Positions 13,506 through 37,293 of a stretch of DNA of 64,000 nt are shown here, in pieces. How positions within the stretch are numbered: the stretch's first letter is position 1; each line of letters begins with the position of its first letter. Location: positions 1-64,000 of the IMG/VR virus record IMGVR_UViG_3300032334_000335. One strand, 5' to 3'. The position numbers were made by a program, and so were the translations under genes. The notes beneath the pieces are model-generated. The model was not told the DNA's origin. It saw nothing but the letters and a program-made list of their open reading frames with translations, and did no database searches. The DNA comes from a virus.

Positions 13506-13511
13506 AAAAAT

Positions 13512-16181
13512 ATGAGTTACGTAGATGCTTTCTACAATAGAGAGCAAGACGTTATCAATGTTGTCGAACGTGACGACAAAGGTAACAGACATTTTAAAGA
13601 ATATCCTGCAAGGCATATCTTTTATTACCCTGATCCAAAGGGCAAATATCTTTCAATCAAGGGCGAACCCCTTAGTCGTGTAAGTTCTAAAAACGTTAAA
13701 GAACATCGCAAAGAACTTGCTATCCATTCCAACAAGCGACTGTTTGAAAGTGACATCAATCCAATCTATCGCTGTCTTGAAGACAACTATCTCAATGTTG
13801 ATGCTCCAAAGCTAAATGTAGCGTTCTTCGATATTGAGGTGGACTTCGATCCAGAACGTGGCTATGCGTCACCAGAAGATGCATTTATGCCAATCACTGC
13901 GATCGCTGTTCACTTGCAGTGGATGGACACTATGGTGTGTTTGGCTATTCCTCCAAAGACGCTGTCAATGGCAGAAGCTGAGAAACAGGTTGCTGAGTTT
14001 CCTAACACTATGTTGTTTGATAACGAAGCAAATATGCTAGACACGTTCCTCGATCTCATCAAAGATGCAGATGTGTTAAGCGGTTGGAACAGTGAAGGCT
14101 TTGATATTCCATATACTGTTAATCGTGTTACCAAGGTTCTCAGTAAAGAAGATACACGACGTTTCTGTTTATGGGATCAGTTTCCCAAGAAGCGTGAGTA
14201 TGAAAAATTTGGAAAGACCGCTATAACATATGATCTTGTTGGTCGTGTACACCTAGACAGTCTTGAACTGTATCGCAAGTATACCTATGAAGAACGTCAC
14301 ACCTATCGATTGGATGCTATCGGTGAGATGGAGATCGGTGAAAACAAAACTGTCTACGAAGGCACACTTGATCAGTTATACAATAATGATTTCCGCAAGT
14401 TTATTGAATACAATAGACAAGACTGTGCATTGCTAGACAAACTAGATAAAAAACTAAAGTTCTTGGATCTTGCTAACACACTGGCACATGAATGTACTGT
14501 ATTACTACAGACTACTATGGGTGCTGTTGCTGTTACAGAACAAGCTATTATCAACGAAGCTCATAAGCGTGGCATGATTGTTCCTAATCGTAAGAAGATG
14601 GAAGAACAAGGTGACACACAGGCCGCAGGTGCTTATGTTGCGTATCCAAAGAAAGGCATCCATGAATGGATTGGTTCTCTTGATATTAACAGTCTATATC
14701 CTTCTGCTATTAGGGCTTTGAACATGGGGCCGGAGACCATCGTTGGTCAGTTACGACAAGATGGTACCAAAGCATACATTGAAACAGAGATGGCAAAAGG
14801 CAAATCTTTTGCTTCTGCTTGGGAAGGTATATTCGGTAGTTTAGAATATACAGCAGTTATGGATAGAGACGTTGGACGTGAAATCACTATCGACTGGGAA
14901 GATGGCGGCAGTGATACATTATCGGCAGCACAGGTAAATGATTTAATCTTCGAAAGCAACCAGCCCTGGATGCTGTCAGCGAATGGTACTATCTTCACCT
15001 ACGAGAAAGAAGGTATCATTCCTGGACTGTTAAAGCGTTGGTATGCTGAACGTAAAGACATGCAGGCCAAACTCAAAGACTGTATTAAAGCAGGAAACAA
15101 GATTGAAGAAGAATACTGGGATAAGCGTCAACTCGTTAAAAAGATTAATCTTAATAGCCTTTATGGTGCGATCCTTAATCCTGGTTGCAGGTTTTTCGAT
15201 AATCGTATCGGGCAATCCACTACGTTAACTGGCAGAGCTATTGCTCGACACATGGCCGGTAAAGTCAATGAAATCATAACAGGTGAAAACAATCACATAG
15301 GTAAAGCTATTATCTACGGTGACACAGACTCTTGTTATTTCTCAGCATATACTACGTTAAAAACAGACATTGAAAAAGGTCTTATACCTTGGTCAAAAGA
15401 AAATGTAGTTGATCTTTACGACACCATAGGAGAAGAAGTAAATGGCACATTCCCCAAGTTTATGCAAGATGCTTTCCACTGCCCAAAAACCCGAGGAGAG
15501 GTTATCAAGGCAGGTCGCGAGATTGTTGCTTCCAAAGGATTATTCATCACTAAAAAGCGATACGCAGTTCTCTACTACGACAAAGAAGGAAAACGTGCCG
15601 ATGTCGAAGGTAAACCAGGAAAGATTAAAGCGATGGGGCTTGACCTCAAGCGATCAGATACCCCGGTTGTTATCCAAGACTTCTTGAGCGAAGTGCTGAC
15701 AAAAGTACTTAATGGTGCTGGTAAAGAAGAAGTTCTAGAATATATCGGTGAGTTCCGGACTGAGTTTAAAACTAGGCCTGGTTGGGAGAAAGGTAGTCCC
15801 AAACGTGCTAACAAGATTTCAGAATATCGCGACAAGGAAAAGAAAGCAGGTAAGACTAACATGCCCGGACACGTTCGTGCTAGCCTTAACTGGAATACTT
15901 TGAAGCGCATGATGGATGACAAGTACTCAGTTAACATTACAGATGGTGCCAAAGTCATTGTCTGTAAGATCAAAGATAACCCAATGGGCTATACCTCAGT
16001 TGCCTATCCAGTAGACGAACTGAGATTACCACAATGGTTTAAAGATCTGCCGTTCGACGATGCTGAAATGGAAACAACAGTTATCGACGAAAAGTTAGAA
16101 AACTTGATCGGTGTCTTGGAATGGGACATTAGTTCAACCCGCAATGATAATACATTCAACAAACTATTTGATTTTGAGTGA
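13512..16181 (+). CDS. Family B DNA polymerase
   Basis: Exo DIEV and GWNSEGFD; pol SLDINSLYPS, KINLNSLYG, YGDTDS; start at MSYVDA after AGGAG. Confidence 0.97.
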   Translation: MSYVDAFYNREQDVINVVERDDKGNRHFKEYPARHIFYYPDPKGKYLSIKGEPLSRVSSKNVKEHRKELAIHSNKRLFESDINPIYRCLEDNYLNVDAPKLNVAFFDIEVDFDPERGYASPEDAFMPITAIAVHLQWMDTMVCLAIPPKTLSMAEAEKQVAEFPNTMLFDNEANMLDTFLDLIKDADVLSGWNSEGFDIPYTVNRVTKVLSKEDTRRFCLWDQFPKKREYEKFGKTAITYDLVGRVHLDSLELYRKYTYEERHTYRLDAIGEMEIGENKTVYEGTLDQLYNNDFRKFIEYNRQDCALLDKLDKKLKFLDLANTLAHECTVLLQTTMGAVAVTEQAIINEAHKRGMIVPNRKKMEEQGDTQAAGAYVAYPKKGIHEWIGSLDINSLYPSAIRALNMGPETIVGQLRQDGTKAYIETEMAKGKSFASAWEGIFGSLEYTAVMDRDVGREITIDWEDGGSDTLSAAQVNDLIFESNQPWMLSANGTIFTYEKEGIIPGLLKRWYAERKDMQAKLKDCIKAGNKIEEEYWDKRQLVKKINLNSLYGAILNPGCRFFDNRIGQSTTLTGRAIARHMAGKVNEIITGENNHIGKAIIYGDTDSCYFSAYTTLKTDIEKGLIPWSKENVVDLYDTIGEEVNGTFPKFMQDAFHCPKTRGEVIKAGREIVASKGLFITKKRYAVLYYDKEGKRADVEGKPGKIKAMGLDLKRSDTPVVIQDFLSEVLTKVLNGAGKEEVLEYIGEFRTEFKTRPGWEKGSPKRANKISEYRDKEKKAGKTNMPGHVRASLNWNTLKRMMDDKYSVNITDGAKVIVCKIKDNPMGYTSVAYPVDELRLPQWFKDLPFDDAEMETTVIDEKLENLIGVLEWDISSTRNDNTFNKLFDFE

Positions 16182-16981: not shown

Positions 16982-17347
16982 ATGATCAAAGGTCTACAAG
17001 GTAATATAGGCATTACAGTCAGTGGTGGCGATACTAGTGTGCCTTATGTTAACAACAATCCTAGTAACCCTATGCAGGGTATGATGCGTATTAATGGCAC
17101 TGACATACAGGTGTTTGATGGCAACTCTTGGTTGAACTTGAGCACCAGCTATGCAACTGTAGGCCTAGATTCCGAAACACAGAATCTGTTGAACTGGGCA
17201 AGGAGTAAACAGAAGCAAGAGATTGACTTACTAGAACTAGCTACAAAAAACGAAGCCGTTCGTATTGCATTAGAAAATGTAAAAAAGGCACAAGATCAAC
17301 TTACTATAACAGCACATTTATCGAGAGACCATGAAACAACCAGTTAA
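16982..17347 (+). CDS. Hypothetical protein
   Basis: 121-aa ORF in operon. Confidence 0.65.
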   Translation: MIKGLQGNIGITVSGGDTSVPYVNNNPSNPMQGMMRINGTDIQVFDGNSWLNLSTSYATVGLDSETQNLLNWARSKQKQEIDLLELATKNEAVRIALENVKKAQDQLTITAHLSRDHETTS

Positions 17348-18941
17348 CTTAACACCATTACAGAAAGACTATGCTGTGTATTTGCCAGCTATCAGTTCTT
17401 TCTATTCAACATATGTTGCCAAGCAACGTCTAGAAGAGTTTGTTCCTAATGATCGCATTCCGCAAGGATTTGATCGTGGCATTGAAGGCATGAACTTCTT
17501 AAATGCTGACGAAGGATACTTTACCTACAAGTATGCTTTGTATTCAGCAGGTCACGCACAACTTGATTTAGAAAAGTCAATGGAACAAGAGTCAATGATC
17601 CAACAACGTGATCGACCTAACACAATGATCTTAGGTGACTCTGGCGGATACCAGATTGGTAAAGGTGTTCTTAAGTTTGACTGGTTGAACTTTGAAGGTC
17701 CAGAAGCCAACAAGACTCGTAAAAAGATTCTCGAATGGTTAGAGTTAACTGCTGATTGGTCAATGATGCTGGACGTGCCGACTTGGGCTTGTGACCATAT
17801 TCATAGTCCAAAGACTGGATTGAAAACATTTGAAGACTGTTTGGAAAAGACACGTTTCAATAACGACTACTTCTTACAGAATCGTCTTGGTCAAACTAAG
17901 TGGCTGAATGTGCTTCAAGGCGGTGACTGGGATACTGCTGAGAAATGGTATCGTGGTGTTGTAGAGTTCAGTGATCCTAAAGGCAAGTACGCTGGCAAGG
18001 AAGCAGAAGGTTGGGCCTTCGGTGGTGCTAATATGTGTAAGATGGATATTACACTCAAGCGTCTAATGACTATGCGTGACGAAGGTATGCTTACAGGTAA
18101 GAACTGGATTCACTTCTTGGGTACAGCACAACTTGACTGGAGTTGCTACCTAACACAGATCCAACGTCAGATCCGTAAACATATTAATCCAGAACTTACT
18201 ATTAGTTTTGACTGTGCAAGTCCGTTTATTGCTACTGCTCACGGTCTTGTCTACACAAACGCACAACATACCAATAAGCGTTGGTCGGTTATTATGGACA
18301 AGGCTCCTGATAACAAAGCACTTTCAGGACGTCATGATATTCCGTTTCCGTTTGAAAGCGAGTTTGCAAGTCGTTTAACCATGGGTGACATCGCATACTA
18401 TAACTACGGTGTTCGTAAGACAGACGAAGAACTCGGCGGAGTTAAGTTTAATCATTTAAATCCAGAACACTATCACGAAGTACCTCGTCTTAATAAGCTA
18501 GGTAAGATTCCAAATAAGACTAGTTGGGATAGTTTTAGTTACGCATTGATGATGGGCCATAATGTTGAATGCCATATCAAAGCAGTTCAACGTGCTCAAC
18601 AGTTAATGGATATCGAATGTGCTAGATTTAAGCCAGATTGGCGCACTTGGGGTCTTGAAGGTAAGAAAGAAATCGAGTTTAGTGACTGGGTTCCACGTAA
18701 GATTCTATACTTTGGTACATTTGTTGAAGAACTGTTTAATACTAAGACCAAATCAGAAGCATTTGATATGATTGAGACTGCCGGACAGTTCTTAAAATCA
18801 CTGGAAGGTGCTCGACTACAAGGTGGCCCTGCTGCTAATACATTTGGTAGTTTATTTGATTTTGACGATGGCAAGAAATCCACTGAGATTGATTTTGCAA
18901 ATCCGGACGATGATGACCTAAATAGTCTTGTAGCTGAATAA
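17331..18941 (+). CDS. dpdA: TGT-fold guanine transglycosylase, DpdA-like (DNA 7-deazaguanine insertion)
   Basis: DSGGYQ, MLD, VLQG, GWAFGG, HFLG and ISFD motifs of the TGT barrel; folE/queE nearby. Confidence 0.8.
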   Translation: MKQPVNLTPLQKDYAVYLPAISSFYSTYVAKQRLEEFVPNDRIPQGFDRGIEGMNFLNADEGYFTYKYALYSAGHAQLDLEKSMEQESMIQQRDRPNTMILGDSGGYQIGKGVLKFDWLNFEGPEANKTRKKILEWLELTADWSMMLDVPTWACDHIHSPKTGLKTFEDCLEKTRFNNDYFLQNRLGQTKWLNVLQGGDWDTAEKWYRGVVEFSDPKGKYAGKEAEGWAFGGANMCKMDITLKRLMTMRDEGMLTGKNWIHFLGTAQLDWSCYLTQIQRQIRKHINPELTISFDCASPFIATAHGLVYTNAQHTNKRWSVIMDKAPDNKALSGRHDIPFPFESEFASRLTMGDIAYYNYGVRKTDEELGGVKFNHLNPEHYHEVPRLNKLGKIPNKTSWDSFSYALMMGHNVECHIKAVQRAQQLMDIECARFKPDWRTWGLEGKKEIEFSDWVPRKILYFGTFVEELFNTKTKSEAFDMIETAGQFLKSLEGARLQGGPAANTFGSLFDFDDGKKSTEIDFANPDDDDLNSLVAE

Positions 18942-18951
18942 GGAGAATGTT

Positions 18952-19137
18952 ATGTATGAGCTTCGAATCAAACATTTGGAAGATGCACACCGTGCTTTGG
19001 ACAAACAAATTGATACTTTGGAAAAAAATGGCTTGTTTGAAGATCTAAAGTTAGAGAAATTGAAGAAAGAAAGGTTGCTCTTAAAGGACAAACTTGCTAT
19101 ACTAAAGCGTAAACAAGAACTCCACACACAGGCGTAA
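18952..19137 (+). CDS. DUF465/YdcH-like coiled-coil protein
   Basis: HRALDKQI...LKKERLLLKDKL pattern. Confidence 0.65.
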   Translation: MYELRIKHLEDAHRALDKQIDTLEKNGLFEDLKLEKLKKERLLLKDKLAILKRKQELHTQA

Positions 19138-19138
19138 C

Positions 19139-19342
19139 ATGGCATCATTCACCCTTAATCGAACACAAGTTGAAAAACTTGCTAAGATGGCGGCACACTT
19201 CAAGGAAGTAGATTGGTTCGTCCTTGAGGAAACACATACAAGCGGCATTGGCCCTACGGTCACTGTCAAGTTCAATCTTTTCAACGATGATGACAAAGAC
19301 ATTGACACCACCGTTGATATCACCGATGTGAGTACCTGGTAA
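19139..19342 (+). CDS. Hypothetical protein
   Basis: 67 aa ending DITDVSTW. Confidence 0.6.
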   Translation: MASFTLNRTQVEKLAKMAAHFKEVDWFVLEETHTSGIGPTVTVKFNLFNDDDKDIDTTVDITDVSTW

Positions 19343-19806
19343 TGAAACAAGAACTAGACGCATTGCTATGCGAGAAGTATCCTAAGATGATGGTTAACCG
19401 CAACAAGAACATGCAGGAAACTTGTATGTGTTGGGGCTTTGAATGCGGTGATGGTTGGTTTAATATTCTTGATCAACTGATGGGCAATATTCAACATCAT
19501 ATTGATTGGAAGAATCGAAAAGAAGAAGTTGTTCCACAAGTGACCCTAGATCAAGTTAAAGAAAAGTTTGGCACACTGCGTTTCTACTACCAAGGCGGTG
19601 ATGACTACATCAGCGGTCTTGTTAGCATGGCAGAATCAATGTCGGGTATCACCTGCGAAGGCTGTGGTGCTCAAGCTAAGACAAACTGGCCTAAAGCTGA
19701 GAATGGCGGCATCGGTGGCTGGGTTCGTACCATATGTGCTCCTTGCGAAACTAAGCGTGAAGAAGAACGTGCCAAATATATGAAATCACAAGGATTCGAA
19801 GAATGA
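19342..19806 (+). CDS. Hypothetical phage protein with Zn-ribbon
   Basis: ECGDGW, QVKEKFGTLRFY, CEGCG...CAPC. Confidence 0.7.
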   Translation: MKQELDALLCEKYPKMMVNRNKNMQETCMCWGFECGDGWFNILDQLMGNIQHHIDWKNRKEEVVPQVTLDQVKEKFGTLRFYYQGGDDYISGLVSMAESMSGITCEGCGAQAKTNWPKAENGGIGGWVRTICAPCETKREEERAKYMKSQGFEE

Positions 19807-19991
19807 AGTGCGACCTATGCGGTAAGGAGTATGACTCCGAGTGTGATTATCGGCAGGGTCGCTGCCCTCATCACCCATCAATGGTAGATAGTATTTTAGC
19901 TGATCCGTATAAAGCAAGATACTATAATCTTTTACAATCAATCAAAAACTTTTTCACAAAGAAAGACTGCGACTGCGGTCACAATCACTAA
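19803..19991 (+). CDS. Small Cys-rich hypothetical protein
   Basis: CDLC..C..CPH; coupled ORF. Confidence 0.55.
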   Translation: MKCDLCGKEYDSECDYRQGRCPHHPSMVDSILADPYKARYYNLLQSIKNFFTKKDCDCGHNH

Positions 19992-20548
19992 TGAAACGAA
20001 ACTATAACACAGGCGTTGAAGAAGCTGTAACATTCTTCACAGGTATAGAGATTGAAAAGACTCCTGCTTACGGAATGAAAACTCTATTTGTAGTAGGTGT
20101 TCACGATCCTTATACAATTTTAGATATTGTAAAAGAATCTAGATCATATAACGACGAATCTAAACATATTACACACATTTACTTTGGTGCCAATCAAAGT
20201 TTTAAGACTAACGGTGTCAATGATATTGAAACTTGGCGTCCTTGGGAAAATATGATCTATGTCTGCCTAGACAGCGAGTATGATCTTTGGTGTACACTTG
20301 ACTTCGATGTTCGTGAAGTAGAAGGCTTATTGGAAAGTGGCTTAACTGAGAAGCGTCAGTTTATTCCGCAGATTTCGGTTAAACTGCCCTATTTACAACA
20401 GCTGGGATATAATGCTACAATAAAGCTAGACGACAAAGATTTTAAAGCGACAAATCACGGAGTGTGGTGCCATAACCTCCATGACCTACTAGATAGAAAT
20501 AAGTTTACTAGTTGGGATCAATATGGTAAAGATGAGATTATCAAATGA
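19991..20548 (+). CDS. Hypothetical alpha/beta protein in the deazaguanine region
   Basis: 185 aa; TLFVVG, HIYFGANQSF, TIKLDD, NHGVWC. Confidence 0.7.
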   Translation: MKRNYNTGVEEAVTFFTGIEIEKTPAYGMKTLFVVGVHDPYTILDIVKESRSYNDESKHITHIYFGANQSFKTNGVNDIETWRPWENMIYVCLDSEYDLWCTLDFDVREVEGLLESGLTEKRQFIPQISVKLPYLQQLGYNATIKLDDKDFKATNHGVWCHNLHDLLDRNKFTSWDQYGKDEIIK

Positions 20549-20922
20549 GTGGTGGATACGCAGTAGCATCAACAGCAAAGCAGAGACGCATTCCTAGGAT
20601 CTCTAGTAATCGCGGTCCTCGGCCAAGACAATACATAGAAAAAAACACAATGAAACTAACATTCAAACAAAGACTACGCAACTGGTTGCTTAATGACGGC
20701 GACGATTTCGAACAAATGTCTGAAGACTGCGAAGGTCCAGAACTACATTCTCAAGGATTTCGCTTACAAGTTTACGGTGCCAGTGGCGGCACTATTGTAG
20801 AAACTACCAAGTACGACCGTAAGAGTGATGAGAATCGTCACAGTCTACACGTAGTCACTGAGGATAAAGACCTTGGTGAAGAACTAGCTAAAATCATCAC
20901 TATGGAACAGTTACGCTCATGA
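20545..20922 (+). CDS. Hypothetical protein
   Basis: 125-aa coupled ORF. Confidence 0.65.
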   Translation: MSGGYAVASTAKQRRIPRISSNRGPRPRQYIEKNTMKLTFKQRLRNWLLNDGDDFEQMSEDCEGPELHSQGFRLQVYGASGGTIVETTKYDRKSDENRHSLHVVTEDKDLGEELAKIITMEQLRS

Positions 20923-21314
20923 TTATCAAACAAGACATCCGACCACTTAAAATGATATGGGTCACTTTCCGCAAGGAAGGCATTCATAAATATCCTGCGG
21001 CACTAACAGATCCAAATCTAGCTACAGGAGACGAATATGATGTATCGTTTTTGGGTTATCCTCATCGCCACATCTTTCATTTCCGGGTGTGGATCAATGT
21101 GCTCCATAATGACAGGGACATCGAGTTCATCCAGTTCAAACGATGGCTCGAGTCGCTGTATAATGGTCAAGGTTCCGTTCTGAGCCTAGACTATAAAAGT
21201 TGCGAAATGATGTCAGATGATCTACATGACATCATTAGCAAGAAGTATCCAGGTCGTGAGATTTGGATTGAGGTCTCCGAAGACGGAGAAAATGGTTCAT
21301 TTATTAAGTACTAA
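20919..21314 (+). CDS. T-fold QueD-like protein of DpdL type
   Basis: EGIH, LGYPHRHIF (LxxxHRHxF instead of QueD CxxxHGH), SCEM, VSEDGENG. Confidence 0.7.
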   Translation: MIIKQDIRPLKMIWVTFRKEGIHKYPAALTDPNLATGDEYDVSFLGYPHRHIFHFRVWINVLHNDRDIEFIQFKRWLESLYNGQGSVLSLDYKSCEMMSDDLHDIISKKYPGREIWIEVSEDGENGSFIKY

Positions 21315-21332
21315 CTAGAAGAAGAGGCTGCA

Positions 21333-21599
21333 ATGGCTAAGAACTACAAGGATTATTCCTATTTTGAAAACCGCCCAGATGTTGTCAAGGTCTTTGATGA
21401 TCTTGATGCATACTTGGATTACTGCAGAATTGAACTCTGCGATTTTAACCCAGCAGATCTTTATCGCAAAGATTCTGCAAACTATCAGGCTTACCTACAA
21501 AGTAAGCGACCACGCCGGCCTTGGGTAGATCGAGGCGAACGTAAACCTTACCAAGGTAAAAATCCAAGGCCATATAACAATGACCGTTTTTCTCGTTGA
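21333..21599 (+). CDS. Hypothetical protein
   Basis: 88 aa; GAGG SD; basic C-terminus. Confidence 0.65.
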   Translation: MAKNYKDYSYFENRPDVVKVFDDLDAYLDYCRIELCDFNPADLYRKDSANYQAYLQSKRPRRPWVDRGERKPYQGKNPRPYNNDRFSR

Positions 21600-22677
21600 T
21601 CTAGAAGCAGTCGAGACAAGGTACACGGGACAATGGAAGTCCCATGTACCAGCTCTTTTACGAAAGGTGTCTAACGATGTTCAAGTTATCTCTGGCCCTA
21701 CGGATATTCCTACAGCCACTACTCCTGGTGCTTTCCTTAATTTTGGTGGCACCAATATATACAAGTCTGCTCAAGTTGAGCAAATCGGCAGGCTATTTTG
21801 CAACGGAGCCGTTCATCCCGGCGATCACTTTATTTTTACTGATGCTTGGCATCCTGGTATCATAAACTTAAAGTACATGAGTGAACTGTTGCAGATTCCT
21901 GTAACAACACACGGCTTATGGCATGCTGGTAGTTATGATCCTCAAGACTTCCTAGGTCGACTCGTTGGCAATAAGCCTTGGGTCAGACACGCTGAGAAGA
22001 GTTTCTTCCATGCGTTTGATCATAACTACTTTGCTACAAACTTTCACATTGAAATGTTTATTAAAAATCTACTCAATGATGAGTTGTTTGAAAATCCTTG
22101 GATGGAAGATCATCTTGCAGAAGCACTGAGAGGCGAATGTCCTAATATAGTGCGTACTGGTTGGCCAATGGAGTATATGGAAGATACCTTAATCATGTAC
22201 AAGAACATGAAGAAGCGTGATCTTATTTTATTTCCGCATCGCATCGCACCAGAGAAGCAGGTTGAAATCTTCCGTGATCTAAAAGAACACTTACCGCAAT
22301 ATGAGTTTGTTGTTTGTCAAGATCAACAACTAACAAAGAATGAATATCATAACTTGTTAGGTGAGGCTAAACTAGTGTTTAGTGCTAACTTGCAAGAAAC
22401 ATTGGGCATTAGTTGGTATGAAGGTGCGGTAGTTGATGCTATTCCTATGGTTCCGGATAGACTTAGTTACAGCGAAATGGCACATGATACATTTAAGTAT
22501 CCAAGTGAGTGGACGGAATCGTTTGAAGCATATACTGTACATCGTAAAGAAATCTGTATGAAGATTATACAGTATATAGAAAACTACGTAAAGTATTTGC
22601 CAAGCCTAAATAAACAGGTATATGATTTAAAAGAAAACTTTTTTAGTTGCAATAACCTGCTAGAGAAGTTAAAATAA
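21580..22677 (+). CDS. GT-B fold (GT4-like) glycosyltransferase
   Basis: FPHRIAPEKQ and SANLQETLGISWYEG (ExxGxxxxE) donor-binding motifs. Confidence 0.8.
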   Translation: MTVFLVDLEAVETRYTGQWKSHVPALLRKVSNDVQVISGPTDIPTATTPGAFLNFGGTNIYKSAQVEQIGRLFCNGAVHPGDHFIFTDAWHPGIINLKYMSELLQIPVTTHGLWHAGSYDPQDFLGRLVGNKPWVRHAEKSFFHAFDHNYFATNFHIEMFIKNLLNDELFENPWMEDHLAEALRGECPNIVRTGWPMEYMEDTLIMYKNMKKRDLILFPHRIAPEKQVEIFRDLKEHLPQYEFVVCQDQQLTKNEYHNLLGEAKLVFSANLQETLGISWYEGAVVDAIPMVPDRLSYSEMAHDTFKYPSEWTESFEAYTVHRKEICMKIIQYIENYVKYLPSLNKQVYDLKENFFSCNNLLEKLK

Positions 22678-22716
22678 ACAATATGTCATCCACGACATTA
22701 ACTCGGAGAATATTAA

Positions 22717-23541
22717 TTGACAAAAGATTTTAAACCAGATCCAATAATGAACACACCTGACAACAGGGAGTTTGTTAAGGATGAATATCAGCCTTTGGGG
22801 AAAGAAGTATATGTTAAGGCTGCAGACATGATGTCTGATAAAGGTTACCAAGAAGCTAATCTAGCAGATGCTATTCGCTTCAAACTGAAACGTGATAAGA
22901 AACGTTTCTGGGCTGGTGACAATATCAGTGATTATATCAGTGAAGAAGATAAAGACGTTCTAATCAAAGAAGCAACTGAAGCATTTGAAAAAGTACTCGA
23001 TACGTTGCTTATTGATCGTGAGACTGATCCTAACAGCAAAGGCACTGCCAAGCGCCTTGCTAAAATGTACTTTAACGAAATAATGGCAGGTAGATATGAT
23101 CCAGCACCAGACGCTACAGCGTTTCCAAATGATTCGCAGGACCGTTATGAGGGTATGCTCGTTGTTCGCAGTGAGCTTCGGAGTATGTGTAGCCATCATC
23201 ACCAACCCGTTACTGGCGTTGCTTATATTGGTATTTTGGCTGCTAACAAACTTATTGGACTATCCAAGTACACACGTATTGCCCAATGGTGTGCCCGTCG
23301 AGGTACTCTCCAGGAGGAGCTTTGTAATGATATTGCTAGGGAAATACAAAAAGCCACTGACTCAGAGAATGTAGCAGTCTATATCCAAGCGACACATGGA
23401 TGCTGTGAGAATCGTGGTATTATGGCACATAGTAGCTTAACACAGACTACAGTACTCAAAGGTGCGTTCAAAGACGACGGTAATACTAAGAAAGAGTTTT
23501 TTGATAATATTAAACTACAACAAGAGTTTGCGCCACGTTAA
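22717..23541 (+). CDS. folE: GTP cyclohydrolase I with N-terminal extension, TTG start
   Basis: SMCSHHHQP, GLSKYTRI, LQE, HGCCENRG. Confidence 0.95.
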   Translation: MTKDFKPDPIMNTPDNREFVKDEYQPLGKEVYVKAADMMSDKGYQEANLADAIRFKLKRDKKRFWAGDNISDYISEEDKDVLIKEATEAFEKVLDTLLIDRETDPNSKGTAKRLAKMYFNEIMAGRYDPAPDATAFPNDSQDRYEGMLVVRSELRSMCSHHHQPVTGVAYIGILAANKLIGLSKYTRIAQWCARRGTLQEELCNDIAREIQKATDSENVAVYIQATHGCCENRGIMAHSSLTQTTVLKGAFKDDGNTKKEFFDNIKLQQEFAPR

Positions 23542-23551
23542 GGAGAACATA

Positions 23552-23785
23552 ATGAAAACGTTTGATACATTTGAAGAAGTAGTCGGAATGATGCATTGCA
23601 TGAAAAGGCCGATTGTGGTTCATGCTAAGAAGATAGACGAGGAATTCCGTGTCAATACGCTAGAAGGCAACTATAAACAGGGAAAGCCTGGTGATTATCT
23701 TATGCGTGGTATTGATGGCGAGTTATATATTTGCGACGGACCTATATTTGAAAAAACTTATGATTTCTTAGAAGGAAAACAATGA
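23552..23785 (+). CDS. PGDYG-like small protein
   Basis: TLEG...GKPGDYLMRGIDGELY; start after AGGAG. Confidence 0.65.
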   Translation: MKTFDTFEEVVGMMHCMKRPIVVHAKKIDEEFRVNTLEGNYKQGKPGDYLMRGIDGELYICDGPIFEKTYDFLEGKQ

Positions 23786-24285
23786 GAGTCTATCGCATAA
23801 CACCACTCGAAAAGAAAAGCGTTGTATACCATGTAGAAATGTTCCGTGAAAATACGGATGGCTCTATCAGTTGGGTCAACATTGATGAGACATATCGATG
23901 GGGTCAAGGATTCATCGAAGAAGACATGGATTGTAACTTGCCGTATAAAGACAGTGATCTTGCCTACTGTGATCCTAATGCAGGTTGGGGCGCAGAACTA
24001 GACGACAGTTGTGCTTGCTGGTTTGAATACAGTGACGACTTTACCGATGAGGATAAAGAAGCGTTTGAAACAGCTTATCACGAAGGGGGTGCGGCTTGGT
24101 TGTTTGACGGTGAACACGATTGGCAAGAAGAACATTCTGCTATTCATGTACTAGCACCTTTCCAAGTTGATTTATGTGAAGCCGATGGCACAGTTATACA
24201 AGAAAACATTGAACTCAAAGATAGGCCTAACCCTAGTACAAGTTGGCCTTTTAGCGCAGCATTTCCAAAACCTGAGGAGGAATAA
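23782..24285 (+). CDS. Acidic hypothetical protein
   Basis: 167-aa D/E-rich ORF. Confidence 0.65.
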   Translation: MRVYRITPLEKKSVVYHVEMFRENTDGSISWVNIDETYRWGQGFIEEDMDCNLPYKDSDLAYCDPNAGWGAELDDSCACWFEYSDDFTDEDKEAFETAYHEGGAAWLFDGEHDWQEEHSAIHVLAPFQVDLCEADGTVIQENIELKDRPNPSTSWPFSAAFPKPEEE

Positions 24286-24503
24286 TGGAAACAGCCAAGG
24301 ATCTAACTGATCATTTGATATTCCGAGCAAAGAATATGCAGGAGTTTATTGTGGAAAGAGATTGGGATCTAATCCCTGCCGGTGTTGTTAAGTTTGATAT
24401 ACAGCACACACAAGGCGAACCTGCTCGTATATTTGTACATGCAATGACACAAGAAGAAGCAGAACGTCAAGTTGACGATTGGTTTGGAGAAGGTGTAGAA
24501 TGA
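24285..24503 (+). CDS. Hypothetical protein
   Basis: 72 aa; GAGGAGG SD. Confidence 0.6.
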   Translation: METAKDLTDHLIFRAKNMQEFIVERDWDLIPAGVVKFDIQHTQGEPARIFVHAMTQEEAERQVDDWFGEGVE

Positions 24504-24910
24504 TTAAGCCCTTACGTGACGATTTAATGGTACAACAACAAGTGGAAGATTCTTGGCAGCATTTTGTTGGCGTTATCATGCTGAACCAAACCGGACGTAA
24601 AGCAGTAAAGACCACACTTCCTGAGTTTCTATATTGGTTTCCGATGCCGCAGATACTGATAGATGCCGATCCAGATTTTGTCAAAACTATTATCAAACCA
24701 CTAGGAATGGTAAATGTTCGTTACCAGCGTTTGGTAAGAATGAGCCAAGACTACTTGACTTGGGACGGAAATGATGCTACAATGTTATATGGCATCGGAA
24801 AATATGGTTCCGATTCATATGAAATCTTTTATAAGCACAACTACACAGTTGAGCCCACTGACAAAGAACTAAAAAGATATCTAGAACAAGAGGTTTTTAA
24901 TGTTGCTTAA
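24500..24910 (+). CDS. HhH-GPD DNA glycosylase, MBD4-like
   Basis: W..F..IMLNQT, KPLG, LYGIGKYGSDSY.IF and P.D..L..Y match the MBD4 catalytic-domain layout. Confidence 0.8.
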   Translation: MIKPLRDDLMVQQQVEDSWQHFVGVIMLNQTGRKAVKTTLPEFLYWFPMPQILIDADPDFVKTIIKPLGMVNVRYQRLVRMSQDYLTWDGNDATMLYGIGKYGSDSYEIFYKHNYTVEPTDKELKRYLEQEVFNVA

Positions 24911-25382
24911 ACTATTGGACAAGTTAGGTCGTAAGCGTATTATTATGGATCGTGTTGATAACGAACCATATCTAGAACGCTATTATTTGTTCCTTAAAGA
25001 TCGCAATCGTTTTCCATTTAATATTTTTCTACATAAATTTTTAAAAGGCGATCCAGATGATGTGCATGATCATCCATGGCCCTATGCCACATTGATTTTG
25101 AAAGGTGGATATTATGAATGGATTCCGCAGTTTAATGCAGATGGTACAAAAAATTGTGAAATACGTAAATGGCGTGGACCCGGTCACTTTCGTACTTGTA
25201 GTCCTAACTCTTATCATCGTATTGAGCTTAAGCCTGGCGTGACTGCCTGGACATTGTTTATGCCCGGTCCTCATAAACGTGATTGGGGTTTCCTGGTCAA
25301 TGATAACTGGATTCAAAACGAACAATATATGAAAACAAGGAAAGAAGAAGCTTATGAAAAAGCACACAGTATCGTGGCATGA
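24900..25382 (+). CDS. Cupin-fold metalloprotein
   Basis: HDHPW...ILKGGYYE...HRIEL...WTLF. Confidence 0.7.
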   Translation: MLLKLLDKLGRKRIIMDRVDNEPYLERYYLFLKDRNRFPFNIFLHKFLKGDPDDVHDHPWPYATLILKGGYYEWIPQFNADGTKNCEIRKWRGPGHFRTCSPNSYHRIELKPGVTAWTLFMPGPHKRDWGFLVNDNWIQNEQYMKTRKEEAYEKAHSIVA

Positions 25383-25896
25383 TTTTCAAGGATTAATATC
25401 AAAGATTTGTAGAGACATCTCATTAAGCGATTGGAGACCAGACTATGTGGTAGGTATTACCCGTGGTGGTCTCCTTCCTGCAGTTATGATCAGTCATTAC
25501 TTTGATATTCCATGTCACACATTAAGTGTTCGCCTCCGTGACGGAGAAGAAGGTGCTGATACTGAAAGCAATCTTTGGATGGCAGAAGACGCATTTGGCC
25601 ATCCTATTTACGATCCTATGGCATCAGGCAGTGGTCGTAAAAATATTCTTGTTATTGATGACATCAACGACAGCGGTGCAACTATTAACTGGATCATGAA
25701 TGATTGGCCTAGCGGATGTTTTCCAGACGACCCATCATGGGAAGAAGTATGGAATAACAATGTTAGATTTGCAGTGTTGTTTGACAATCTAGACAGCAGA
25801 TGCAAAGTTGATATGGATTATGTTGGCACTGAAGTAAACAAAGCAGAAAACGATATTTGGATTGATTTTCCATTTGAAGATTGGTGGACAAAATGA
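25354..25896 (+). CDS. Type I purine phosphoribosyltransferase (Gpt-like)
   Basis: VVGITRGG, ILVIDDINDSGAT PRPP loop, WIDFPFE. Confidence 0.9.
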   Translation: MKKHTVSWHDFQGLISKICRDISLSDWRPDYVVGITRGGLLPAVMISHYFDIPCHTLSVRLRDGEEGADTESNLWMAEDAFGHPIYDPMASGSGRKNILVIDDINDSGATINWIMNDWPSGCFPDDPSWEEVWNNNVRFAVLFDNLDSRCKVDMDYVGTEVNKAENDIWIDFPFEDWWTK

Positions 25897-26132
25897 GTAC
25901 CATTACAAGGCACAGCAATACCTGTAAAGTAACACAAGCATCTAGCAACAAAACTGTCGATGCTGAAGTTATGTCTTTTAACGAAGGCCGTAACTTAACT
26001 GTTGTTATGAATAAATCAGTTAAACTGATGATGTCATGGAACGGACGTATGTATGAAGGCAGAATGGCAGGTATGGATTTTATCAGCGAAGGTCCTGCTG
26101 TAAGTAAGACACAAACAAGTGCAAGAGGTTAA
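25893..26132 (+). CDS. Hypothetical protein
   Basis: ATGA-coupled ORF beginning MSTITRH. Confidence 0.6.
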   Translation: MSTITRHSNTCKVTQASSNKTVDAEVMSFNEGRNLTVVMNKSVKLMMSWNGRMYEGRMAGMDFISEGPAVSKTQTSARG

Positions 26133-26133
26133 T

Positions 26134-26508
26134 ATGACGGACTTAGATGAAGCTAAACAATCAGGTGTTGCTCCGTGGGACAATGCCGTTGAAAATATGG
26201 AAGATTTTCATGTTCAAGTATTCCGAGACAAATATCCTGTAACGGAAGGTCATCTATTGTTTGTACCTAAATACAACACCGATGCGGTCATCCTTGAATG
26301 TTTTGAGTTTGCTTTAGAAGAAGGTCGACAGATGGTTGCTGCTGGTGAGTGTGACGGGTTTAATATCGGACTTAATGTAGGGCTGTCATCAGGGCAAACT
26401 GTTATGTATCCACATGTTCATCTTATTCCAAGACGTACAGGAGATATGGAAGATCCTCGAGGCGGAGTACGTCATGTTATTCCAGAAAAAGGTAACTATA
26501 AAAAATGA
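26134..26508 (+). CDS. HIT family nucleotide hydrolase
   Basis: YPVTEGHLL, GQTVMYPHVHLIPRR histidine-triad region. Confidence 0.9.
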   Translation: MTDLDEAKQSGVAPWDNAVENMEDFHVQVFRDKYPVTEGHLLFVPKYNTDAVILECFEFALEEGRQMVAAGECDGFNIGLNVGLSSGQTVMYPHVHLIPRRTGDMEDPRGGVRHVIPEKGNYKK

Positions 26509-26651
26509 AAATGTTTAAAAAAGTCAGTGCTATTTTTATTTCAGCCAGTGCATTAACCTTAGCAGTGTTACATTGGGGTACCCCGGAGAGCATGGCATGG
26601 GTAGTTGCGTTAGCAGGCTGGGTCCCACATTGTTTTAATGAAGGAGATTGA
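26505..26651 (+). CDS. 48-aa membrane protein absent from the ORF track
   Basis: MKMFKKVSAIFISASALTLAVLHWG...FNEGD*; ATGA-coupled and fills the gap. Confidence 0.55.
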   Translation: MKMFKKVSAIFISASALTLAVLHWGTPESMAWVVALAGWVPHCFNEGD

Positions 26652-26652
26652 T

Positions 26653-26880
26653 ATGCAAGTACGAGTAACAGAAGATGATAAAGAGTTTGGTAAGTGTGGT
26701 TGTGGTCGTAGCCCAACAGGTAAGTGTATTGGTTGGCATGGTCTAGAAGAAGGTGAGTTCCGCGAGAAACTGGCTGAATGGGAAATGGAAGACTATAAGC
26801 GCAGAGCGCAAGCGATGTGGAATGATAGTTGTACCAGCGTAAGAGCCCCTGGCGATTCTGAGGGTGGAGACATTGACTGA
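26653..26880 (+). CDS. CDGSH-like Fe-S/Zn-binding small protein
   Basis: CGCGRSPTGKCIGWH resembles C-x-C-xx-S-xxx-P-x-C-D-G-S-H. Confidence 0.6.
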   Translation: MQVRVTEDDKEFGKCGCGRSPTGKCIGWHGLEEGEFREKLAEWEMEDYKRRAQAMWNDSCTSVRAPGDSEGGDID

Positions 26881-27067
26881 GATCGTTGTCAAATGGGATA
26901 ATCAAAATGTTCCTTGGTGGAACGAAACTTGTGCTCTAGTATTAGAACATTTCGGACTACCTGGTGACAGATTTGTTTATACACCGCACGAAGACTATAT
27001 GACATTTAAGTTCTTTAACGAACACGATGGGCTTATGGCTAAAATACTATTGAGTGATAGGATATGA
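26864..27067 (+). CDS. Hypothetical protein
   Basis: 67 aa; WNETCA..FGLPG. Confidence 0.6.
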   Translation: METLTEIVVKWDNQNVPWWNETCALVLEHFGLPGDRFVYTPHEDYMTFKFFNEHDGLMAKILLSDRI

Positions 27068-27258
27068 GAGACACTATTATAACTATAGTCTTAGTAATAG
27101 TTTTAGCAATGATCATGTTGTTTTCAGACTTCACTGGAAGCAAGGTCGTTGTATATGACTGTGGAATGGCAGAATGGCATCCAGACATTCCACCAAGAGT
27201 CAAAGAAGAATGTCGTAGGTTAAAGTTAGAAGAATTAAAAAGCAGAGACACAATATGA
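27064..27258 (+). CDS. Small membrane-anchored protein
   Basis: N-terminal TM segment; YDC..HPD.P..C. Confidence 0.6.
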   Translation: MRDTIITIVLVIVLAMIMLFSDFTGSKVVVYDCGMAEWHPDIPPRVKEECRRLKLEELKSRDTI

Positions 27259-27437
27259 ACAGCTGGACATTAACTGTAGAAGAAGATCCCGAAACTGGTG
27301 ATGCTATCCTTACATTTCCTCCCGATCTATTAGAAAAATCAGGGTGGGTAGAAGGCGATACCCTAGAATGGATTGACCTAAATAATGGTAGTTGGCAACT
27401 CAAAAAAGTTGACAAAACTACTGAACAGAGTGTATAA
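27255..27437 (+). CDS. AbrB/MazE-like DNA-binding protein
   Basis: ILTFPPDLLEKSGWVEGDTLEW swapped-hairpin signature. Confidence 0.7.
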   Translation: MNSWTLTVEEDPETGDAILTFPPDLLEKSGWVEGDTLEWIDLNNGSWQLKKVDKTTEQSV

Positions 27438-27438
27438 T
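27409..27438 (+). promoter_or_regulatory. Sigma70-type promoter, probably leaderless queE transcript
   Basis: TTGACA(27409-14)-18 nt-TATAAT(27433-38), ATG at 27444. Confidence 0.7.
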
Positions 27439-27443
27439 ATACT

Positions 27444-28307
27444 ATGAGCAAAATTAAAATCGCAGAGCTGTTTTACAGCATTCAAGGTGAAGGACGCTAT
27501 ATGGGTGTTCCTTCTGTTTTCTTACGTACATTTGGTTGCAACTTTAAATGTGCTGGCTTTGGTATGCTACGTGGTACATTAAGCGGTGAAGCAGATGTGC
27601 TAGCAGAGAAACAAGAAAAATATAACAAGTGGCCTACGTATAATGAACTTCCATTAGTAAGCACAGGTTGTGACAGCTATGCTAGCTGGCATCCTAGCTT
27701 TAAAGAACTTAGCCCAATGCTTACTAGTGATGCCATTGCAGATCGTATTTGTGAGATATTGCCACATAATGAATGGCAAGACGAGCATCTGGTTATCACT
27801 GGCGGTGAGCCTTTGCTGGGTTGGCAACGTGCTTACCCAGACTTGCTGGATCATCCTAAGATGGCAGGACTAAAAGAGATCACATTTGAAACAAATGGTA
27901 CTCAAAAGCTAACAGAAGAGTTTAAAGAATATCTAGTAAAGTGGCAAATGCCTAACATGGATTTTGCAAGAGAAGTTACATTTTCAGTAAGTGCTAAACT
28001 TCCATGTAGTGGCGAAAAGTGGGAGGAAGCTATTCTGCCAGGAGTTGTTTGTGAATATGAAGACTTTGGTACAGCCTATTTGAAGTTTGTCATTGCCACT
28101 GAACAAGATTTTGCAGATGCAGAATGTGCTATTGCCGCTTATCGTACAGCAGGATTTAAAGGTCACATTTATCTCATGCCAGTGGGCGGTGTTGAAAGTG
28201 TTTATGCACTAAACAATCGCACAGTGGCAGACTTAGCTATGAAGAACGGTTTAAGATATAGTGATAGATTGCAAGTGCCGTTATTTAAAAATGAGTGGGG
28301 AACTTAA
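27444..28307 (+). CDS. queE: 7-carboxy-7-deazaguanine synthase (radical SAM)
   Basis: ELFYSIQGEG, FLRTFGCN, ITGGEP, ETNGT, RLQV; cluster motif Cx3Cx39C. Confidence 0.9.
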   Translation: MSKIKIAELFYSIQGEGRYMGVPSVFLRTFGCNFKCAGFGMLRGTLSGEADVLAEKQEKYNKWPTYNELPLVSTGCDSYASWHPSFKELSPMLTSDAIADRICEILPHNEWQDEHLVITGGEPLLGWQRAYPDLLDHPKMAGLKEITFETNGTQKLTEEFKEYLVKWQMPNMDFAREVTFSVSAKLPCSGEKWEEAILPGVVCEYEDFGTAYLKFVIATEQDFADAECAIAAYRTAGFKGHIYLMPVGGVESVYALNNRTVADLAMKNGLRYSDRLQVPLFKNEWGT

Positions 28308-28747
28308 TGAAGAAGATTATTGAAAAACTTTTTGGTATTGATAAAGTTCGAGCTGAAGCAGAGCGTTCAGTAGCAATAGCAGAAGAAGCAGCCAAGGCAG
28401 CGAAAGATGCTACCGCGGCAGCAGAGAGAGCCAAAGAAGCCGAAGAACTGGCAAAACTCAGTGCAAAAGATAGAGCAACCAAACTAAAAGAACCTTGGGT
28501 AGGTGTACTAAACACACATATCAACAAAGATAATATCCGCAATGGCTTCTTTGAGCTTGACTGGAACGACCATTTTGTGTTAAAATTAAAGCAAGAAGGA
28601 TACGGATTTGATGGTGATTTAGATGAAGAAATCGTAGACCGTTGGTTCCGTGAACTTTGTGCTAACGTGGTAGTTGACGGTGACTTTGGCGGTGCCGTTA
28701 ACACTGGCGTTATTGATATCAACTCAGTTAAAAAGAACAACAAATGA
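28307..28747 (+). CDS. Hypothetical protein
   Basis: TAATG-coupled; coiled N-terminus; GFFELDWN. Confidence 0.7.
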   Translation: MKKIIEKLFGIDKVRAEAERSVAIAEEAAKAAKDATAAAERAKEAEELAKLSAKDRATKLKEPWVGVLNTHINKDNIRNGFFELDWNDHFVLKLKQEGYGFDGDLDEEIVDRWFRELCANVVVDGDFGGAVNTGVIDINSVKKNNK

Positions 28748-29730
28748 ACTATATTTTAGTAGATACAGCAAATACCTTTTTCCGTGCTCGGCACGTTATC
28801 AACGGTGACGCTGATATCAAACTAGGAATGGCTTTTCATATTACACTTAATAGTGTAAAGAAAGCATGGCAAGACTTTAACGGCAGTCACGTTATCTTCT
28901 GTTTAGAAGGTCGTAGCTGGCGCAAGGACTTTTATGCTCCTTACAAAGCGCAACGTGCAGAAGCTCGTGCTGCTCATACAGAACGTGAAGCAGAAGAAGA
29001 AAAAGTCTTTTGGGAAGCCTTTGACACATTCAAAGAGTTTATTACAGAAAAGACTAACTGTACAGTTATGCAGAATCCACGCTTAGAAGCTGACGATCTT
29101 ATTGCTGGCTGGATTCAGAGTCATCCAAACGATAATCATATTATCATTTCGACAGACACAGATTTTGTACAACTTATTGCACCTAACGTCAAACAGTACA
29201 ACGGTGTTATGGAAACAACTATTACACACGAAGGTATCTTTGATGCAAAAGGCAAAAGAGTCATTGATAAGAAAACGCAAGAGCCCAAAGCAATCCCAGA
29301 TCCAGAATGGCTCTTGTTCGAAAAGTGTATGCGTGGTGATACCAGTGATAATGTCTTCTCAGCGTATCCGGGTGTGCGTACTAAAGGCACAAGCAAAAAA
29401 GTGGGTCTTACTGAAGCGTTCGAAGATCGTAAAAGCCGCGGATATGCGTGGAACAATCTCATGTTACAGAGATGGGTTGACCATAATGGCGTCGAACACA
29501 GAGTGTTAGAAGATTACGAACGCAACCGTCGACTTATTGATTTGAGTCATCAGCCAGAAGATATTAAAACGATCATTGCCGAGACCATTGCGACAGCAAC
29601 AGGTGCTAATAAAAATATCAGCCAAGTTGGCATTCGACTTATTAAGTTCTGTAACTTATACGATCTTAAGAAGATTGCCGACCAGGCACAGGCATATGCC
29701 GAACCATTAAATGCGAGGTACACCGTATGA
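28744..29730 (+). CDS. rnh: RNase H / 5'-3' flap exonuclease (T4 rnh-like)
   Basis: ILVD..N, YKAQR, EADD, STDTDF.QL, GDTSDN. Confidence 0.9.
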   Translation: MNYILVDTANTFFRARHVINGDADIKLGMAFHITLNSVKKAWQDFNGSHVIFCLEGRSWRKDFYAPYKAQRAEARAAHTEREAEEEKVFWEAFDTFKEFITEKTNCTVMQNPRLEADDLIAGWIQSHPNDNHIIISTDTDFVQLIAPNVKQYNGVMETTITHEGIFDAKGKRVIDKKTQEPKAIPDPEWLLFEKCMRGDTSDNVFSAYPGVRTKGTSKKVGLTEAFEDRKSRGYAWNNLMLQRWVDHNGVEHRVLEDYERNRRLIDLSHQPEDIKTIIAETIATATGANKNISQVGIRLIKFCNLYDLKKIADQAQAYAEPLNARYTV

Positions 29731-30441: not shown

Positions 30442-30442
30442 A

Positions 30443-30481
30443 TATAAATATATACGTGGTTAATTAGGAACACGTATATAT
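30443..30481 (+). promoter_or_regulatory. Late promoter TATAAATA overlapping an RBS-occluding hairpin
   Basis: Perfect 11-bp inverted repeat ATATATACGTG/CACGTATATAT covering the start codon. Confidence 0.65.
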
Positions 30482-37292: not shown

Positions 37293-37293
37293 G

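Follow-up and report, generated by a model that had tools for sequence, protein, structure and literature searches.

Genomic context of the glycosyltransferase gene

The window analysed here is a stretch of 64,000 nucleotides (positions 1 to 64,000) of the IMG/VR virus record IMGVR_UViG_3300032334_000335, a fragment of 86,555 bases with a CheckV completeness of 23%, and the gene under study encodes a predicted glycosyltransferase (GT) on its plus strand. A first-pass annotation, made from the letters of the window, had placed this gene between a DpdL-like gene and folE and had proposed that its product glycosylates a 7-deazaguanine base in DNA. The open reading frame (ORF) is real and lies between these two genes, with an 88-residue ORF sitting between the DpdL-type gene and the GT gene. 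The end of this small ORF overlaps the GT start by 20 nt, and 39 nt separate the GT stop from the TTG start of folE. The N-terminal residues of the GT align with the N-termini of its homologs, indicating that the start codon is correct. The gene is part of a long run of co-oriented plus-strand genes that includes a B-family DNA polymerase and a 5'-3' exonuclease (Table 1). The minus-strand gene run at 34418-45828 lies more than 11 kb from it, in agreement with the distance of over 10 kb originally given for a GT-A cluster near the tail genes. Consensus scans found no excess of promoter-like sites (43, vs 39.0 +/- 7.0 in shuffles) or terminator-like sites (14, vs 9.7 +/- 3.8), and a megablast search of positions 17000-30500 against phage records gave no match.

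Linkage to dpdA and dpdL

The conserved gene neighbourhood strongly supports a place for the GT in a deazaguanine DNA-modification system, rather than a role in the cell envelope or the virion. Neighbourhoods were collected for 80 of at least 592 IMG/VR loci close to the query, for 60 GTDB genome loci, and for 41 and 80 further IMG/VR loci from two distant subfamilies. All were annotated as stop-to-stop ORFs with hidden Markov models (HMMs) that were built and iterated from the window and five cultured phages. Among 199 non-identical full-length GTs (HMM coverage of at least 0.83), 59 with less than 3 kb on one flank were set aside and 140 were counted; four loci that had been fetched for other reasons (L146-L149) were left out. 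At least one 7-deazaguanine gene lay within 5 kb of the GT in 140/140 loci. A DpdA-type gene was found within 5 kb in 135 (in 54 of these within 150 bp), DpdL within 5 kb in 125, FolE within 6 kb in 105 and QueE within 6 kb in 94. The five loci without a nearby DpdA-type gene were L055, where it is 5,972 bp away, Phosso, L158, L178 and L268. As a control, 28 loci with partial matches to the family model (generic GT4 C-domains) were examined; 17 had enough flank, and a single one of these had a 7-deazaguanine neighbour, a radical-SAM match in L144.

Occurrence of homologs independently of dpdA, which the first-pass annotation had named as speaking against its proposal, was not the pattern found. 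The linkage spans differing gene orders, genome types and identities down to ~25%, and was seen in the jumbo phages PA5oct and Phosso, in ACP17, in Xanthomonas and Burkholderia phages, in many uncultured viral contigs and in alphaproteobacterial genomes. Being near-obligate for both dpdA and dpdL, it gives good support to a link between the GT and deazaguanine DNA modification, and the GT is proposed to be dedicated to a module of this kind built around DpdA and DpdL.

A tblastn search of 50,697 phage records with the GT found it in 22: Phosso (50% identity), eleven records of the PA5oct group (43%), two of ACP17 (34%), BUDD and X1 (25%), BCSR5 (24%), and five Xanthomonas/Erwinia jumbo-phage records (25% over 66% of the query). 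DpdL was not matched by tblastn in five of these GT-bearing records. Gene order was inspected in five of the 22, and is given here with x and dots for other genes: DpdA-like, GT, DpdL-like, ..., phosphoribosyltransferase, QueE in PAC2; QueD, FolE, x, DpdA, GT, DpdL, QueE in ACP17; FolE, ..., GT, 'queuine tRNA-ribosyltransferase', x, QueE in BUDD; GT, DpdA-like, x, QueE, ..., FolE in BCSR5; and DpdL, GT, x, FolE, ..., QueE in Phosso, where the DpdA-like gene is far off. The stop and start codons of GT and DpdA overlap in ACP17 and PAC2. In metagenomes the family is large: at least 8000 candidates among 90% clusters pass E 1e-3, and clustering at 50% identity leaves 1096 representatives with E-values (E) of 1e-3 or lower and 220 with E of 1e-30 or lower. 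The Atlas clusters of the family are 95-100% viral.

In most of the distant viral contigs, the DpdA-type gene is short (~300 residues) and lies directly downstream of the GT, as at L169:8936-9817, L191:8965-9900, L223:8993-9898 and ~100 other viral loci. The short proteins carry DSGA, IAIGG, KVHGFA and YSVDS motifs and gave no Pfam match. They are linked to the long DpdA family by hhalign at 66% probability (E 5.6e-5), and their family model does not recapture DpdA3 of phage phiST at E 1e-5. Judged by sequence, they look like a DpdA-type transglycosylase in a short form, with no more than remote similarity to phiST DpdA3 and to the long family. In a FastTree phylogeny of 79 GTs, obtained by clustering at 55% identity, a split with 99% local support separates clades of 18 and 61 rows. 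In the smaller clade 16 rows, including the window, stand beside a long DpdA, and in the larger 49 have a short, six a long and six no DpdA. DpdA type changes 13 times on the tree, vs 26.6 times with shuffled labels, and 0/200 shuffles were as low.

Alphaproteobacterial genomes (Pelagibacterium, Ochrobactrum, Shimia and others) carry DpdA followed by a gene for a Vut_1/YhhQ-like membrane protein (PF02592, E 3e-6 and 4e-5) and then the GT, as in the GTDB loci L094:7882-13485, L097:8013-11050 and L107:9489-12554. YhhQ transports queuosine precursors. FolE was absent within 6 kb of GT/DpdA in 22/25 genome loci and QueE in 21/25. Such a row could be a cellular deazaguanine-based self-marking and restriction island, or a prophage module. 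In L094 it is adjoined by an OLD-family TOPRIM/AAA_15 nuclease-ATPase.

Predicted fold and donor site

On its own, the window protein gave nothing significant against Pfam, PHROG and NCBIfam models or in a PDB sequence search; its best Pfam GT signal was Glyco_transf_61 (E 0.046, under that model's cut-off). An AlphaFold2 (AF2) model, for which 71 homologs of 28-54% identity were aligned, has a two-domain GT-B fold with two Rossmann-like domains (predicted local distance difference test, pLDDT, 95.7; predicted template modelling score, pTM, 0.92). A Foldseek search of the PDB with this model returned retaining GT-B enzymes of the GT4/GT5 type, among them BshA (3mbo, E 3.2e-9), glycogen synthases, MshA, PglA and TarM. 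The best matches in VIA-align were sucrose-phosphate synthase (6kih, Z 25.4, root-mean-square deviation 3.2, 315 residues aligned), BshA (Z 24.4) and MshA (Z 23.8), all spanning GT residues 1-365. In BFVD, the ACP17 homolog (E 1.3e-31) and one further relative came before generic viral GT4 proteins. Glycos_transf_1 (PF00534) is matched by 40/71 homologs (best E 4.5e-9) and Glyco_transf_4 (PF13439) by 3/71. The GT-B, GT4-like identity first proposed for the protein is thus borne out by structure and by the homologs that match PF00534, and not by a direct family match.

Across the 71 homologs, E281 is invariant and R221, K226 and E273 are at least 90% conserved. The E273-x7-E281 motif aligns with the E-x7-E of a solved putative GT (8xsg, E 8e-5). 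In GT4 enzymes, the Arg/Lys pair and E-x7-E bind the nucleoside diphosphate (NDP)-sugar. The N-terminal acceptor domain has an invariant or near-invariant set of its own: E9, R14, Y15, W19, K62, Q65, D82, D88, W90, H115, D120, D123, E139 and D147. Catalysis is favoured over a non-catalytic role, since the donor-site Arg/Lys pair and E-x7-E are invariant or nearly so. The protein is predicted to be a catalytically competent, retaining-type GT-B (GT4-like) glycosyltransferase.

Neighbouring genes in the window

The features discussed are collected in Table 1. The long DpdA-like protein gave no Pfam match on its own, and a profile of ten members of its family matches the tRNA-guanine transglycosylase (TGT) of Zymomonas mobilis (E 9e-5), with the DSGG, D..P, QG, GG, LGVG and FDS motifs aligning with the corresponding TGT segments. 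The best 50 PDB matches of its AF2 model (pLDDT 86.7) are all TGTs (E 1.6e-7 and weaker), and the protein shares 43% identity with the PA5oct-group gene directly upstream of that group's GT. The model and the profile together indicate a DpdA-type enzyme of the long kind (~420-550 residues). Two genes upstream of the GT, the small T-fold protein fits the LxxxHRHxF signature given for DpdL, a proposed 7-carboxy-7-deazaguanine (CDG) decarboxylase, in the accessible text of Cui et al. (2023, PMC10516641). A tblastn search with it recovers the DpdL proteins of ACP17 and phiST, and 201/219 DpdL family matches carry the exact signature. The window's QueE-like protein groups with the annotated QueE genes of PAC2, ACP17, BUDD and BCSR5.

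Table 1. Features at the glycosyltransferase locus of the window (all assignments predicted)
Feature	Position	Strand	Length	Basis
B-family DNA polymerase	13482-16181	+		PF00136
DpdA-like (TGT-superfamily) transglycosylase, long type	17331-18941	+	536 aa	Family profile, AF2 model, identity to PA5oct group
Protein lacking a Pfam or NCBIfam match	19991-20548	+	185 aa	jackhmmer homologs beside DpdA or GT
DpdL-type T-fold protein (proposed CDG decarboxylase)	20919-21314	+	131 aa	LGYPHRHIF motif
Basic ORF with Arg/Lys/Pro-rich tail, lineage-specific	21333-21599	+	88 aa	phmmer
GT-B (GT4-like, retaining-type) glycosyltransferase	21580-22677	+	365 aa	ATG-to-stop ORF, AF2 fold, homologs
FolE, GTP cyclohydrolase I	22717-23541	+		PF01227, E 3.4e-40
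Phosphoribosyltransferase, accessory	25354-25896	+		PF00156, E 2.6e-11
QueE-like radical-SAM enzyme (CDG synthase)	27444-28307	+		NCBIfam QueE, E 1e-14, below cut-offs; weak Radical_SAM
5'-3' exonuclease	28744-29730	+

The 185-residue protein may be a further component of the module, as jackhmmer places its homologs next to DpdA in ACP17 (L003:6209-6718) and next to the GT in L215, L209, L223 and L211. For the 88-residue ORF, phmmer found matches at 84 loci, all of them from close relatives, and it does not resemble the ORF at the equivalent place in PAC2. Between folE and queE (23462-26508) lie genes for a PGDYG protein, an HhH-GPD glycosylase, a cupin-like ORF (24900-25382), the phosphoribosyltransferase and a HIT protein. 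The cupin-like ORF does not match a PAC2 ORF in a similar position. The HhH-GPD, HIT and PGDYG proteins and the cupin-like and 88-residue ORFs were left out of the conserved module because they are confined to close relatives, and a cupin hydroxylase as the universal source of a hydroxyl acceptor was rejected for the same reason. The phosphoribosyltransferase is near the GT in 35/45 close relatives and 12/65 diverse viral loci, and together with the HIT protein it suggests some nucleotide-level handling of the base.

The predicted base

Five larger relatives (212-245 kb, 55-70% complete) were searched for the remaining pathway genes. QueD/PTPS is present in 5/5, tens of kb from the other deazaguanine genes, and QueC was found in 0/5 of these incomplete genomes. 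Because DpdL is present and QueC was not found, the base is predicted to be unsubstituted 7-deazaguanine, which offers no handle at C7. This makes one part of the original proposal doubtful, namely that the sugar is carried by the C7 substituent of an inserted deazaguanine. DpdL as an alternative pterin synthase, giving a 7-hydroxymethyl base, was considered and rejected as the principal explanation: QueD co-occurs with DpdL in 45/65 diverse loci as well as in the five larger relatives, and the DNA of phiST is plain, with deoxy-7-deazaguanosine (dDG) measured to replace all deoxyguanosine in the accessible text of PMC10516641.

The remark that no 5-hydroxymethylcytosine (hmC) synthase is visible holds for the whole record, in whose 86.5 kb (23% complete) PF00303, the thymidylate synthase/hydroxymethylase family, has no match. 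A thymidylate-synthase homolog is carried by 4/5 larger relatives, ~14 kb or more from the GT and scoring 349-361 bits against PF00303. Relative G001 (G001:C1:141172-142035) has a full-length ThyA-like protein with a ...PFNIAS... segment, which I take to mark dUMP-specific ThyA, and G003-G005 also carry ThyA-like proteins. Going by the G001 sequence, the one that was read, the relatives' ThyA looks like an ordinary thymidylate synthase, and hmC, 5-hydroxymethyluracil and 5-hydroxycytosine were rejected as acceptors on that ground.

Proposed role and alternative explanations

The GT fold, the conservation of the donor-site residues and the near-obligate linkage to dpdA and dpdL were computed directly, and from them I infer sugar transfer, deazaguanine as the acceptor, action on DNA and a biological role. 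The pathway would start with FolE, QueD (whose gene lies elsewhere in the genome) and QueE making CDG, which DpdL would convert to 7-deazaguanine, and the TGT-fold DpdA-like enzyme would then swap guanine in phage DNA for this base. With an NDP-sugar as donor, the GT would glycosylate the deazaguanine, most probably once the base is in DNA, and the glycosylated base may protect the genome against restriction enzymes and against host enzymes recognising plain deazaguanine. As a whole, with the GT acting on DNA after base insertion, this is the best explanation at hand, and I would put its probability at roughly 45%.

Some published observations bear on the biological part. PA5oct DNA is resistant to G-containing restriction enzymes, yet END nucleases, which sense hypermodified DNA, target it (accessible text of PMC12191111). 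Many integron glycosylases attack a phage with plain 7-deazaguanine DNA, according to the portion consulted of 10.1101/2025.10.29.685425, which would give a selective reason to cap the base. When dpdL and dpdA of ACP17 were expressed alone in E. coli, no dDG was obtained, and the authors suggest that other enzymes may be needed; as far as the accessible text tells, the GT gene lying between the two was apparently left out of that experiment (PMC10516641).

Several points weigh against the proposal. The first is chemical: plain 7-deazaguanine has no hydroxyl or other ordinary O-nucleophile for a sugar. Candidates for the acceptor atom are ring carbon C7 or C8, giving a C-glycoside, the 2-amino group, or a group added by other enzymes. 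C7 and C8 of 7-deazaguanine are nucleophilic ring carbons. By itself the window protein scores below every curated GT family threshold, and the solved structures nearest to it use small-molecule acceptors. The family is acidic (median isoelectric point (pI) 5.6, 10% above pI 7, net charge -13 for the window protein), which would not be expected if the enzyme bound DNA; the DpdA-like protein of the window, however, has the same pI, and neither charge nor pI discriminates between DNA and small-molecule acceptors. The 140 census loci are mutually related and not phylogenetically independent, 45 of them belonging to the window's close relatives, and the census loci themselves served to train the neighbour HMMs. 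The literature searched yielded no mass-spectrometry data on the DNA of any GT-bearing phage.

The converse search also counts against the proposal. DpdL was found by tblastn in 28 phage records, 17 with the GT and 11 without: Rhizobium phage RHph_I1_18, two Vibrio phages, Aeromonas phage Ahp1, Synechococcus phage BUCT-ZZ01, five Cellulophaga records and Chryseobacterium phage MA9V-3. As the records lacking a GT include phiST, with its plain dDG DNA, the GT must be dispensable for making or inserting the base.

A bolder version of the proposal would specify a sugar on a ring carbon (C7 or C8) of 7-deazaguanine, that is, a purine C-glycosylated by a retaining GT4 enzyme, in a widespread group of uncultured giant phages, in PA5oct, ACP17, Phosso and their relatives. 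Such a base would be the first case of purine glycosylation in DNA, evolved as protection from host glycosylases and nucleases that recognise plain 7-deazaguanine, with the alphaproteobacterial loci as cellular self-marking systems that use the same base. In so specific a form the idea is quite improbable.

Action on DNA is favoured, and next comes the unlikely alternative that the GT glycosylates free 7-deazaguanine (or CDG) before insertion, the sugar-base being inserted by the DpdA-type enzyme or kept soluble. The precedent is HuiG of huimycin biosynthesis, to which the accessible text of PMC7439116 assigns the transfer of N-acetylglucosamine onto the 2-amino group of a free 7-deazapurine; huimycin-family clusters carry GT4-type GTs with PF13439 (10.64898/2026.04.15.718813, as far as accessible). 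The small acceptors of the nearest solved folds and the acidity of the family also fit a free base, as does the base transporter between DpdA and GT in the alphaproteobacterial loci, and the wealth of invariant Asp/Glu and aromatic residues in the N-terminal domain is what might be expected around a guanine-like ring. On the other hand, the 2-amino group lies deep inside the base pocket in TGT structures, where an N2-glycosylated base should not fit. A bulky sugar in the minor groove should, moreover, hinder replication, and translational coupling with DpdA is compatible with either order of action.

A slim chance remains for a GT-like protein that is an accessory partner of the DpdA-type enzyme, a scaffold or nucleotide-binding helper in a role like that of DpdB or QTRT2, with no sugar in the DNA at all. 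The tight spacing of the two genes in 54/140 loci, the stop/start overlap in ACP17 and PAC2 and a GT tree that follows DpdA type all suit such a partnership, and DpdA3 enzymes failed alone in E. coli (accessible text of PMC10516641). The conservation of the donor-site Arg/Lys pair and E-x7-E nevertheless argues for catalysis. No fused GT forms of 640-2000 residues were found at E of 1e-10 or lower, which is weak evidence against a helper. Furthermore, a sugar oxidoreductase and a further GT accompany the module in some clusters. L184 has a GFO/IDH/MocA oxidoreductase and a second Glycos_transf_1 (GT4-type) protein, which hints at an elaborated or oxidised sugar; the presence of both enzymes in some clusters fits real glycan building.

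Slimmer still is the chance that the preferred acceptor, deazaguanine, should be replaced by a pathway intermediate such as a pterin, as in the cyanobacterial tetrahydrobiopterin glucosyltransferase. That enzyme (9v0l) does appear at Foldseek rank 23 (E 2.4e-7), no better than dozens of other GT4 enzymes, and the frequent presence of FolE near the GT would suit it. Most of the genome loci, however, lack a nearby FolE or QueE and yet keep DpdA, so that the constant partner is the transglycosylase. The least probable reading of all, an ordinary phage GT acting on host envelope polymers, virion proteins or hydroxymethyl/hydroxy pyrimidines in DNA, can appeal to JGI names such as 'glycosyltransferase involved in cell wall biosynthesis', to the phage X1 paper, whose accessible text takes tagE/tarM-like genes as host-surface genes (PMC13384950), and to the thymidylate-synthase homologs of the relatives, but is opposed by the deazaguanine linkage of 140/140 loci vs 1/17 for generic GT4 matches, by the PFNIAS segment of the G001 ThyA and the PF00303 scores of the relatives' homologs, and by bacterial loci that hold GT and DpdA with no thymidylate-type synthase noted there.

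Relation to known systems and implications

The comparison with the T4 DNA glucosyltransferases, on which the first-pass annotation had leaned, stands as far as the shared GT-B fold. Closer kinship was not seen: no T4 alpha- or beta-GT chain was among the best 50 matches in Foldseek (PDB) or VIA-align, and none was found in the PDB sequence search. The 'DNA alpha-GT' model of cyanophage S-TIM5 ranks 48th in BFVD (template modelling score 0.48). Of that annotation's proposal, the link to the deazaguanine pathway is strongly supported, and the C7 substituent is unlikely to exist in this lineage. The T4 enzymes also resemble the window GT in that their genes lie among the early replication/nucleotide genes of a large myovirus, and in the proposed logic that a sugar on a pre-modified base protects the DNA. 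They differ in their partner, a dCMP (deoxycytidine monophosphate) hydroxymethylase, whereas the window GT accompanies the purine pathway of DpdA/DpdL. BshA, MshA and sucrose-phosphate synthase have the E-x7-E motif and the Arg/Lys pair in common with it, but only 8-11% sequence identity, and its N-terminal invariant set is its own.

QTMAN/GTDC1, the tRNA queuosine mannosyltransferase, is a GT4-like enzyme that adds a sugar to a 7-deazaguanine derivative already in nucleic acid; the sugar goes onto a hydroxyl of the cyclopentenediol of queuosine in tRNA. PF12038, presumably its N-terminal domain, was not among the nine families matched by the 71 GT members at E of 0.01 or lower. HuiG (Kutzneria albida), compared here by description, is likewise of the GT-B/GT4 type, is encoded beside folE, queD and queE homologs and has a 7-deazaguanine-type acceptor. 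It differs in acting on a free base in secondary metabolism, in clusters that are defined by the absence of dpdA, whereas the window family is defined by a DpdA-type gene (accessible text of PMC7439116 and 10.64898/2026.04.15.718813). DpdC, DpdM and DpdN are encoded beside dpdA and alter the inserted or to-be-inserted deazaguanine, but they hydrolyse, methylate or formylate a C7 side chain, which the window lineage is predicted to lack, and none is described as a GT in the accessible text of PMC10516641.

The deazaguanine DNA modifications named in the accessible text of Cui et al. (2023, PMC10516641) are small: cyano, amido, aminomethyl, methyl, formyl or carboxy groups, or none. Neither deazaguanine glycosylation in DNA nor a part for this GT in the dpd pathway was found described in the full-text literature searched, a scope that stops short of the supplement of Cui et al. 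on DpdL/DpdA3 phages, and deazaguanine is not mentioned in the accessible text of the X1 and PhiXhv genome papers. The GT enzyme class and the strategy of placing a sugar on a pre-modified base are already known; the purine target and the partnership with DpdA/DpdL would be new. To my knowledge, and in line with the abstract of PMC13326640, known DNA glycosylations are all on pyrimidines.

A GT that is a near-obligate partner of DpdA/DpdL points to an unreported class of purine hypermodification. If true, this could account for the lack of dDG in E. coli carrying dpdA and dpdL of ACP17, and for PA5oct DNA being resistant to restriction yet visible to END nucleases. It bears on the sequencing and engineering of such phages, including Pseudomonas aeruginosa phage-therapy candidates, and could provide an enzyme with which to attach sugar labels to 7-deaza-dG DNA at specific sites. 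Cultured phages with the GT gene exist, which makes the idea directly testable.

Other observations

At some loci (L161:6592-7998, L180:7055-7996 and L184:4841-7112), a radical-SAM enzyme other than QueE lies between DpdL and the GT, with a SPASM domain in L180. A radical-SAM gene beside the GT on a Paceibacterota-binned contig (L124:5078-7321) holds an intein (Intein_splicing, E 1.6e-17). In PAC2, the DNA polymerase (L002:1-5215) is annotated as two pieces with a Hef-like homing endonuclease gene between them.

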